Shown here: positions 11,001-14,000 of the stretch, piece by piece
Position numbering within the stretch: position 1 is the stretch's first letter
Layout of the letters: each line of letters begins with the position of its first letter
DNA from: Octopus vulgaris
Lineage: Eukaryota
Assembly (NCBI GenBank): GCA_951406725.2
Contig: OX597839.1
Coordinates: forward strand, 38,564,001-38,628,000
Length of the DNA: 64,000 bases
Direction of reading: 5' to 3'
Position numbers and translations under genes: made by a program
Notes under the pieces: model-generated
Databases searched by the model: none
Seen by the model: the letters and a program-made list of their open reading frames with translations, nothing else
Told to the model about the DNA's origin: nothing

Positions 11001-14000
11001 AGTACATAACTGGTACTGTACATCATTGACCCTGAAAGGATGAACAACAAAGTTGACTTCAGCAGAATTTGAACTCAGACCTTAAAGAAACGCTGTTAAG
11101 CATTTTGTCTGAAGCACCAATGGTTCTGCCAGTTTGCTGCCTTCATGGATTCAAATTTTGGCACAAGGCCAGAAACTTTTGTGGGTGGGGTGTTCATCAA
11201 TTTCTTGACCCTAATTGATACTTATTTTATTGATTTCGAAAGGATGAAAGACAAAGCAAAGTTGACCAGTGGAAGAAATAACACAAAATATTTTTTCCAA
11301 TGTTTTAATGACACTGACGGATCACTGCTTTCTTAATAATAATAATAATAATAATAATAATAATAATAATAATAATAATAATAATCCTTTCTACTAAAGG
11401 CACAAGGCCTGAAATGTGGGGGAAGGGGGTAAGACGATTACATCAACCCCAGTGTTTCACTGGTACTTAATTCATTGACCCCCAAAAGGATGAAAGGTAT
11501 CTCTGATCATGAGCAGAAGTAGTAGGGGAGCACCATAGCCTGAACAAAATTCTAACTGGGCCCCACCTGCAAGGTCATGTGCTGTTTATCTTGATATAAG
11601 ATCACCATGTCAAGCACACATGGTTGTGATGCATGTGCCTGGTGTACCCTTATCAGATGGGTAGTCATGTCGGGTATACTGGGCTTCGTATATTTGTACC
11701 GCAGTGTCACTTTCATGACATGCACTGCTCTCTCATTCAATAATAATGCTTTATAGGGAAAATGAAGACCCACTTGGCATACTGGTGAACATAGTAAGAA
11801 TTTTCAATAAACATATAGGCATGGAATTTGGTATAAATAAATGTGCCATTTTGATACTCAAAATGGGGAAGAGAAAGCCAACTCAAGGACTTAAACTGCC
11901 AAATGGTAATAGTACTTACCTCTATTGGGGTCCTGAAATCTGATATGACTGCTTGAGCAGAGAATGTATTGAAAGGATCTGTGATGGGAGGTTTGTAACC
12001 TTCGATATTCTTCACGTACAGGTAACTGTGGATCTGATACTGAAAAGACAGACCACTGTATGACACTTTCTCCTGGCCATTTACCAAGAACCTGGCGGTG
12101 AACGTTGTTTCCTGTGTGACGGTTTCCTCTTTCACAAGAGAGATTACATACTCGTTGCTGGTCGTTGTCGGATCGAAATCCAAGTCAATCCATTCTTGTT
12201 TCTCTCCGTTTTTATCAGTGGTCCAGAACAAGCAGTACCATGTGCTTGACCCGGATTCTTTGTAGCCAATAATGTGGTAACCAATTCCAAAGACACTCGG
12301 GTCTCTCTGTCGTGTAACATTTGATTTAGTTTCATTGATCTTCTTGCTACCGTTTGTGGTGCCATTCTCAAGACTATATGCCTTGGCATCCAATATGATG
12401 CCATCGGTCAGTTCATTTTGGTAAAATGAGAATTGACTTCGTGGCAATTTAAATGTTTGTGGACCAATCGTTATGTCCGGTGCTAGTGCTACTGAAGTGA
12501 CCATGTTTTCTCCAGCCAATGCTTGTATGACTGATGTGTAGTTTCCAGCGAGCAAAGCCATCGGCTCTGATCGTAACCCACCCTTTATAAGATGAACCAG
12601 TGAATCATCATAACGGATGGTCAGTAGTATTTTGTTCTGGTTTATAGACATTTCATCGGCTGCAAAACCTTCGTTCTCTTTCATAGGCAACCACAGGTCA
12701 ATTAACTTGCCTTCCTTGATTATACTTTGCTCTCGTGGACATTCGTAGGAGTACTGGTCACTAGCGAGAGCAAATACTCCAGACATGACTGTTGTGTTTG
12801 CCTGAAACGTCATCTCTGTTGACCACTCACTTCCTAGCTTGACCGATCCTACCAAAGGTGGTGTCCGGTCAACCTTTATTGGTACAGAACTAATGCTGTT
12901 GTTCAGACCAGCACCGTTGAAGGCCGTTACACGAATGTAATAAACTTCCGTTTCAATCAAATCTAAATGATAAAAGTCAGCTTCAGTGACGTTCGTTAGC
13001 GACATGTGATCAATGGCATAATCGTTGTGGCGTTGACGAGAGTCATCTGAACCGGGATGAGTTTCATCACACTTGTCTAAAGTTCGGGATATCAAGGTGA
13101 TTCCATATTTACTTATATCAGATTCGATATCTTCAAATGAATGCCAAGACACATGAAGTCTGTCAGTTTCTGTGGCATACACAATACTGGTGTTGCCGAC
13201 CTCGTTAACCACGACTACTCCGACTTTCGGTGGAGTTGTGTCCACTTTAACAGGCTCGCCCGTCATTGCTTCGCAATGTCCAGTGATGTCTTCAGCAATA
13301 ACAGTGACATAATATGCGCCCCCGTGATGAAGAGACAGATTCTTTAGTGCCACAAAAGTGTCTAAGCCAACATGTTTCAATTGTTGCACGTTGAAAGAAC
13401 TTTGCTTGGCGTAAATCTCGCTACATTCGACTGGAACCTTTGATGCCGTACCATTGCTGTTGTCGGTTTGTGTATGGTGACGTATTTCGGGTGTCTTGTC
13501 ACTCACACCAACAATGTAACACTTCATACCAATATCGGACATGAAGCCTTTCCACGACACTTCGATTTGATCTGTTAACGATTGTACAGTCGCATATTCT
13601 ACTTGGCCAACAACGATCTCGCTCGAGTATCCGGCTCGGATGCCATCGGAATAAACTTCAGCAAAACTACCGGCCTCGCTGTGACCCCTCACAGTTACAT
13701 AATAACTGACGGTTTTCGCCGTCAAGTTCAAATTGGTGAACGTGTATGATGTATTGACTCCAACATTGACGAAATCATGAACATTGTGCCTGCTTCTTGC
13801 ATTGATTCGACTTGTCCCAACGGCTACTTCATAATGGCTGATCTTCTGGGTTGAAGACTCGGATGAACGGTCACCAAATTCGTCCCAATTTGCTGAGAGT
13901 TCAGTCAAAGACAACTGATAGTTATTATCATCCCCGACAAGGCCATCCCTCACTTTACCAGGATCCGGTGGTTGTATCATAACCGTAATACCATCTGAAC

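Follow-up and report, generated by a model that had tools for sequence, protein, structure and literature searches.

A catalytically degenerate GH16-like domain inserted into an FN3-like repeat of a large predicted membrane protein in Octopus vulgaris

The domain and its locus

The stretch of Octopus vulgaris DNA analysed here (64,000 nt, referred to as the window) is intron-rich eukaryotic DNA with zero N, and its minus strand carries a multi-exon gene in which a domain resembling glycoside hydrolase family 16 (GH16) lies among FN3-like repeats. The features on which the argument turns are as follows.

2636..60552, minus strand: host gene, multi-exon, predicted to encode a type-I membrane protein of ~5000 residues; placed by colinear tblastn with the relatives P0040, P0017, P0031 and P0057
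11920..14467, minus strand: large exon with about four FN3-like repeats and the GH16-like domain
11926..12741, minus strand: predicted GH16-like jelly-roll domain, running from Cys10 to Pro281 in the 283-residue sequence that was modelled, plus a Cys in the next exon
12274..12288, minus strand: catalytic strand in degenerate form, G161-I-G163-Y-H165, where licheninase has E105-I-D107-I-E109

A reading made from the sequence alone had placed a non-catalytic GH16-like domain at 12000..12720, citing peptide motifs that parallel those of lichenases and XTH. The quoted motifs are present in the minus-strand frame of exon 14467-11920, among them GIGYHIIG at 12288-12265 and YECPREQ, and the domain does lie there, although its true extent is slightly larger (12741-11926 plus the Cys at 10563-10561). 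The exon gives tblastn E values of 5e-128 against an oyster protein and 4e-77 against a sponge protein, and a Pfam fn3 match (E 8.2e-5) that falls under the Pfam cut-off.

Predicted fold

The window domain was modelled with AlphaFold2 without templates, from family sequences only. The model (predicted local distance difference test, pLDDT, 86.1; predicted template modelling score 0.82) is almost all beta, with one disordered stretch at residues 123-152. Foldseek returned 187 matches at E <=0.001 (best E 4.2e-9), and the best 42 of these 187 are all glucanases, carrageenases, porphyranases, XTH/EG16, Crh5 and their kin. When VIA-align was run against 48,161 representative structures, the licheninase 3i4i ranked first (Z 21.7, root-mean-square deviation (rmsd) 3.2, 194 residues aligned), followed by EG16 (Z 20.4, rmsd 2.2, 178 aligned) and a carrageenase (Z 20.2). 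Rows 1-30 of that list are GH16 by title or, in a few cases, presumably so; the first L-type lectin stands at row 31 (Z 15.3). A model of the divergent relative P0027 (24% identical) retrieved the same top two structures, with Z 20.6 and 19.6.

Profile comparison points the same way. Aligned with 127 licheninases, a profile of 28 family sequences reached probability 90.7, E 1.3e-6 and a score of 49.3; the reversed profile scored 21.7, and none of 20 column shuffles exceeded 21.4 (licheninase residues are numbered as in 1GBG). By the models, the domain has a beta-jelly-roll with GH16 topology, and the GH16-type fold proposed from the sequence is nearly certain.

The resemblance is out of reach of ordinary sequence searches. 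At E <=10, PF00722 matched neither the window domain nor any of the 24 members of the alignment, whereas 10/10 reference enzymes passed, and the score accordingly stays below the family cut-off. The GH16 link was equally unseen by phmmer and hmmsearch against PDB chains, where the best matches, antibody heavy chains (E 0.06-1.6), were rejected as chance. ESM Atlas gave generic bacterial clusters only (97-136/256 shared features), which serve as leads only, and word-seeded protein searches with the domain returned nothing, being insensitive here to the point of missing known relatives too.

Loss of the catalytic strand

The sequence-only reading had aligned the catalytic ExDxE segment to GIGYH and considered catalysis lost; both points hold. 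In the AlphaFold2 model the corresponding strand, residues 161-167, reads GIGYHII. With the disordered loop columns removed, hhalign set H165-I-I-G on E109-F-L-G and G163 on D107 (licheninase probability 94.7; XTH-type 96.8); both alignments have a two-residue gap immediately before this match, and G161 is equated with E105 because the strand is continuous. An earlier hhalign register, which placed DEIDI on NELTD and so split the acids across the loop, was rejected, since the model shows helix or disorder there and the stretch is unconserved, and since the GIGYH register appeared once the loop columns were removed.

Among 50 relatives, column 161 holds G40/S2/A2 (6 gaps), column 163 G41/N/V/Q (6 gaps) and column 165 H29/S6/T5/F2/Q/M/G/L (4 gaps), so that acids occur in 0/44, 0/44 and 0/46 sequences, respectively; this count excludes P0108 (domain E 4e-8) and P0073, which clusters with P0020. 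Thus G-x-G-x-H stands where GH16 enzymes carry ExDxE or ExDxxE on the active-site strand. ExDxE-like strings occur in 3/38 sequences, all off the catalytic strand, and away from that strand D264 (44/48 relatives) is the sole acid near the cleft to be strongly conserved. As the sponge copy reads SLGFH at this strand, the loss is old. The residues argue that the domain is, with high probability, non-catalytic. With both the catalytic motif and the Pfam score failing, it is formally outside GH16, though it works like a pseudo-GH16.

Relationship to the GH16 branches

The family profile was compared with 10 intron-free XTH-type sequences, 127 licheninases and 50 bulged laminarinase-type sequences bearing the GEIDIME motif. 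It matched the XTH-type set at 95.1% with the variable loop and 96.8% without it, and the licheninases at 90.8% and 95.2%, over 165-168 columns with E values of 1e-6 to 3e-10. Against the bulged set it reached 0.4%, whereas the licheninases matched that same set at 99%. In subsets, 0/8 bulged groups exceeded 1%, and 4/4 licheninase groups gave 93-96%. The regular catalytic strand and the closer kinship with XTH and licheninases are those of the non-bulge branch (GH16_18-21, EG16), the bulged contrast being with laminarinase-type sequences only. Kinship of the betaGRP/GNBP type, with bulged laminarinase-type GH16, was not seen in a set that contained no true GH16_4 sequences. Non-bulge (XTH/EG16/licheninase) ancestry is therefore probable, and the parallels with lichenases and XTH drawn by the sequence-only reading are borne out at the profile level.

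Such ancestry would be unusual for an animal protein. In the available part of one source, Metazoa are named four times, always under GH16_3 and GH16_4 (PMC6827312); in that of another, the non-bulge group is given for bacteria, plants and fungi, and the ExoK/licheninase-XTH-CRH branch has so far been placed in the same three (PMC8711696). The molluscan GH16 proteins of a further source, as far as its accessible text goes, are laminarinases (PMC7560691).

With the GH16_21 licheninases (1GBG, 3I4I, 3O5S), the domain shares the jelly-roll, the strand order (Z 21.7), the regular, non-bulged catalytic strand and the G..Y, LxFD and VxG motifs, and most relatives keep the W184 position. It differs from them in having G/G/H for E105/D107/E109, in the loss of F92, Y94, the W103 loop and the polar cleft residues, in its glycosylated loop insert, in an identity of 10-16% and in its setting within an animal membrane protein. 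GH16_20 XTH and EG16 (1UMZ, 5DZG) provide the best profile match (95-97%) and the lowest rmsd (2.2 A, to EG16), together with the [SG]G[FIL]xS, LxFDPT and W...[D]Y/W motifs and the +1 aromatic. Unlike these plant and algal proteins, the window domain is without catalytic acids, the -1 Tyr and the XET_C extension.

Insertion into a single FN3-like repeat

The domain had been described as lying inside a repeat stalk. It does, and the description can be refined, in that it is inserted inside one repeat rather than between repeats.

12742..12870, minus strand: strands A-B of the host FN3-like repeat, its N-terminal half (DRTPP..GSVKLG..QANTT), matched by profile to positions 1-31 in neighbouring repeats with probability 62-93
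12739..12741, minus strand: N-terminal bracketing Cys (YECPREQ), Cys in 40/41 relatives
10576..11919, minus strand: phase-0 intron (GT..AG), which by its splice signals separates the domain body from its closing Cys
10561..10563, minus strand: Cys that brackets the domain on its C-terminal side (KKLCKYG), encoded by the following exon, which starts at 10575, and read through the splice; Cys in 41/44 relatives with a long enough tail
10174..10560, minus strand: C-terminal half of the host repeat, strands C-G, from profile alignment and the P0027 model

Positions 1-31 of other repeats are matched by the 43 residues before the first Cys, and repeat ends by the 123 residues after the second. The two halves, once joined, match other repeats over the full length (probability 96.5-98, E to 3e-13, 105-116 columns), as against 0.2-1.1 for the reversed joined halves; the insert itself reaches a profile probability of at most 2.0 against the repeats. 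Because both repeat halves form confident strands flanking the jelly-roll (residues 100-338) in the P0027 model, the insert would sit between strands 2 and 3 of an FN3-type domain. The domain is found once per protein, the few split matches being halves of one domain.

Two Cys had been said to bracket the domain, and both are conserved; KKLCKYG, however, falls outside 12000-12720 and opens the next exon. Their conservation and topology lead us to infer a disulfide between them. The splice 11920/10575 is likewise inferred; oyster protein P0040 crosses the intron (11919-10576) at residues 3941 -> 3946. A conserved C-x2-C-x3-C-x3-C-x3-C loop of five Cys (10440-10393, minus strand) lies in the C-terminal half of the host repeat and would be a second insert in one FN3 domain.

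Cleft residues and the glycosylated loop

What remains of the substrate cleft bears directly on the question of a ligand.

12292..12471, minus strand: variable loop that stands where licheninase has its short W103-bearing loop; it contains four N-glycosylation sequons, at N135, N139, N145 and N150
12190..12225, minus strand: W182 (licheninase Y123 position) and W193, aromatics on the positive-subsite side, Trp in 45/47 and 41/47 relatives
11962..12012, minus strand: conserved cleft-side loop (W/K)N..[DG]Y.PP..DPF.PF, which holds Y258

The four sequons lie in the extra loop for which several had been predicted. This loop precedes the dead strand and is modelled at pLDDT <50 at 123-143 and 150-152; at least one sequon occurs in 33/33 sequences that span it, and it has a median length of 65 aa and a mean pairwise identity of 14%. 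In the Lingula relative P0008, it has grown to 240 residues with 25 sequons.

In the available description of the active enzymes, the -1 platform is Phe92 (licheninase) or Tyr81 (XTH), and the binding aromatics are Tyr24/Tyr94/Trp103/Trp192, with a conserved Trp at +1 (PMC6827312). The platform of the non-bulge branch is absent here: Ala94 replaces F92, and the relatives have S/A/T in 35/44, Phe in 2/44 and His in 1/44. The position of Y94 is taken by A96 and by mostly small residues or Val in the relatives. E63, R65, Q119, N121, E131 and N182, near-invariant in the 127 licheninases, are unconserved in the family, and position 180 is hydrophobic (L/M/V) where licheninase has Asn121.

The other half of the cleft has fared better. 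We take licheninase Y123 and W184 to face positive subsites, and the position of the former is that of W182. At the latter position, W253 in family numbering, 37/47 relatives have Trp, the closest one included, and P268 is kept in 46/48. The +1 aromatic of the non-bulge branch (Trp192/Trp185) has its counterpart in Y258, which aligns with the Trp of the XTH DW motif and is Y/F in 41/47 relatives; the licheninase alignment is gapped there. A half-cleft that accommodates some ligand, or a cleft shut by its own loop, explains these residues better than a beta-glucan groove does, and a binding-only role is plausible. Laminarin or curdlan as the ligand is doubtful, because the -1 aromatic and the polar sugar contacts have been lost and the positive-subsite aromatics alone remain.

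Relatives and architecture of the host protein

Searched against 1.84 billion representatives, the 280-residue domain has 37 relatives at E <=0.001, which are 22-47% identical to it. The whole exon matches 36 proteins at E <=1e-10; of those that the domain search had not found, 13 contain the domain at E <1e-10. Names were looked up for 30/37 domain relatives, and most matches carry none. The named ones, uncharacterized or mislabelled, come from Crassostrea, Ostrea, Mizuhopecten, Ylistrum, Mactra, Mercenaria, Haliotis, Lingula and the sponge Oscarella; a Ptychodera relative came from the whole-exon search. None of the named relatives with the domain is non-animal. Bacterial proteins P0109-P0114 and P0116 (Neomarinimicrobiota, and Bacteroidota cargo of the type IX secretion system, T9SS) have FN3-like repeats at 23-27% identity, without the GH16-like insert.

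In the relatives, a signal-like hydrophobic stretch is followed by Vitellogenin_N, an M23-like domain, PAN, the FN3-like repeats with the insert, Big_9, Notch-type EGF and a transmembrane helix, the latter in 5/6 long relatives. The lipid module, Big_9, EGF and the transmembrane helix are known from these relatives and not from the window sequence. Vitellogenin_N, the N-terminal module that marks large lipid transfer proteins, was found in P0056 and P0040 (residues 1-720) at E 2.6e-10 and 2.2e-12, with 40 and 46.8 bits against a cut-off of 24; furin-like RKKR/RRS/RVRR sites lie inside it. With a Vitellogenin_N start and a transmembrane end, the relatives would be membrane-anchored large lipid transfer proteins. 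They share the signal-like stretch and the first module with vitellogenin, apolipophorin and apoB, and differ in the M23-like domain, PAN, the FN3 stalk with its insert, Big_9, EGF and the transmembrane helix; the usual large lipid transfer proteins are secreted.

The M23-like domain lies in exons 57095-56907 and 54248-53871 (minus strand) and gives a weak peptidase match (PDB 5kqb, E 0.035) and no Pfam match. It has the G[LV]D motif, S/F-I-H-V-A-V-R instead of HxH, and apparently lacks the first His ligands, and is possibly a second dead enzyme fold; we presume a likeness to LECT2.

Other features of the window

Four full-length relatives (4640-5268 aa) are colinear by tblastn with window exons from ~60552 down to 2636, from which the window gene is taken to be an ortholog of these ~5000-residue proteins. 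The ends of the gene lie at the edges of the mapped range 2636..60552 or beyond it, and the mapped exons contain no stop codons. Their approximate positions by tblastn are as follows.

57095-56907, 54248-53871, 47768-47583, 44640-44467, 40834-40655, minus strand: host-gene exons
39317-38076 (PAN), 32462-32358, 22138-21599, 20698-20510, 19039-18839, minus strand: host-gene exons
18524-17829, 16870-15300, 14467-11920, 10575-9669, 2947-2636, minus strand: host-gene exons

The PAN match in exon 39317-38076 has E 4.1e-5 (Pfam). Furin-like basic sites occur as LRKKRAL at 9942-9931 (minus strand) and as RTKRSS in exon 39317-38076 (minus strand), which suggests cleavage of the host-protein ectodomain. 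An in-frame poly-Ser run of ~19 residues (about 16660-16600, minus strand) is an AGC/AGT microsatellite within a repeat. The introns hold decayed transposon remnants at 29560-30130 (plus strand), 4600-5260 (minus strand) and 62050-63720 (minus strand). One is LINE-like (RVT_1 E 0.021), and two are, by their motifs, presumably Tc1/mariner-like; the remnant at 4624-5049 has no Pfam match.

Proposed function and alternatives

We propose that a pseudo-enzyme of the non-bulge GH16 type (XTH/EG16/licheninase) became inserted in the B-C loop of a single FN3-like repeat, where its base would probably be clamped by a disulfide and the insert would project sideways from the stalk. The aromatic half of the cleft would have been kept (W182, W193, W253, Y258, His165 and the PPxxDPFxPF loop), while the -1 platform and the polar sugar contacts were lost and the glycosylated loop would wall off the negative end. 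Such a half-cleft could hold a glycan end, a glycoprotein or a peptide, rather than threading a beta-glucan chain, and the whole protein could act as a cell-surface capture or uptake receptor. That the domain is a ligand-binding recognition module on the stalk of a capture receptor, acting through its aromatic half-cleft, is the likeliest of the readings, though no more than an evenly balanced proposition. Several observations weigh against it. The window copy has Lys (AAG, 12012-12010, minus strand) at the W253 position, a lineage-specific loss of a cleft aromatic. The mean pairwise identity of the domain core is 26%, compared with 28-32% for neighbouring repeats (53% for one), and the conserved aromatics may merely pack the PPxxDPFxPF loop onto the Gly-Gly floor. 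The transmembrane helix and the lipid module come from the relatives, not from the window gene. The branch is also unclean by structure, as the first Foldseek match is a kappa-carrageenase and another carrageenase reaches Z 20.2, and the profile contrast used an XTH-type set of ten and no carrageenase or agarase sets.

Some of these points would suit a structural or protein-interaction module, in which the PPxxDPFxPF loop closes the old cleft and the domain, binding no sugar, serves as a spacer, a kink or a docking surface to which, for instance, a partner protease or the protein's own far end would attach. This is possible, if somewhat unlikely. Small residues at 94, 96, 161 and 163, the hydrophobic position 180, a loop modelled at pLDDT 95-98 and a core no more conserved than the repeats are all compatible with it, but the aromatics that remain align with subsite positions which face the solvent in XTH and licheninase, and His165, kept in 29/46, would be unusual for a purely closed surface. 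The idea has a precedent in the glucanase-like module of insect betaGRP, which neither hydrolyses nor binds insoluble glucan (PMC6272582), for which reason glucan binding should not be assumed here. The betaGRP/GNBP proteins and horseshoe-crab Factor G alpha are animal proteins with a glucanase-like module used in recognition systems; according to the accessible parts of two studies, the betaGRP module has no glucanase activity (PMC6272582, PMC7915573). Animal GH16s belong to bulged GH16_3/GH16_4 in the available classification (PMC6827312), whereas the window domain is unmatched to the bulged profile, far more decayed, inserted in an FN3 repeat and predicted to be membrane-anchored; a Pfam scan of 7 long relatives found no betaGRP-type N-terminal glucan-binding Ig-like domain.

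A dead glucanase that recognises laminarin, curdlan or mixed-linkage glucan in an immune or feeding receptor is improbable. It would account for the fold, for glucanases as top structural matches and for the kept positive-subsite aromatics, and ~9% of animal and fungal GH16_4 members are given as lacking catalytic residues, binding proteins among them (PMC6827312, available part), but the -1 aromatic, the W103 loop and all polar glucose contacts are gone, profile similarity to laminarinases is absent and Trp has become Lys in the window copy. An origin outside GH16, from a ConA-like lectin (L-type or another) whose likeness to GH16 is confined to the fold, is very improbable. ERGIC-53, VIP36 and Emp47 share the ConA-like sandwich, the lack of catalysis and the type-I membrane topology, and the domain has no Pfam or hidden Markov model match to GH16 and only generic ESM Atlas clusters; these lectins nevertheless score Z 14-15 against 20-22, below thirty enzyme entries in both models, and the XTH and licheninase profile alignments (in a comparison without any lectin profile) are hard to reconcile with such an origin. 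Least probable of all is an active enzyme using other residues, such as His165 with Asp264. D264 is D/E in 45/48 on the cleft-side loop and H165 occupies the acid/base position, yet H165 is missing in 17/46, the nucleophile position is Gly in 40/44, and D185, D197, D199 and D257 are 50-70% conserved, D199 as part of the LxFDP turn motif.

Significance

Dead animal GH16 domains are already known from betaGRP/GNBP; new here are a domain that is invisible to Pfam, its non-bulge likeness and its insertion in a loop. The findings also point to a membrane-anchored form within the vitellogenin/apolipophorin superfamily, for which no description was found in the literature searched; by the relatives' accessions or by domain combination no publication on the family was found, supplementary expression and proteome tables lying outside that search. 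The host protein, unannotated and ~5000 residues long, is common to sponge, hemichordate, brachiopod and molluscs, farmed ones such as oysters, scallops, clams and abalone among them, and its foldable 280-residue module offers a means of probing an old recognition function. Tentatively, animals may have gained a GH16 of the ExoK/licheninase-XTH-CRH branch before the sponge/bilaterian split, lost its catalysis and built it into a membrane-anchored receptor of the lipid-transfer family together with a second, likely dead, wall-degrading fold (M23/LECT2-like), a protein which could be an ancient receptor by which marine invertebrates sense or capture the wall polysaccharides of microbes or algae.

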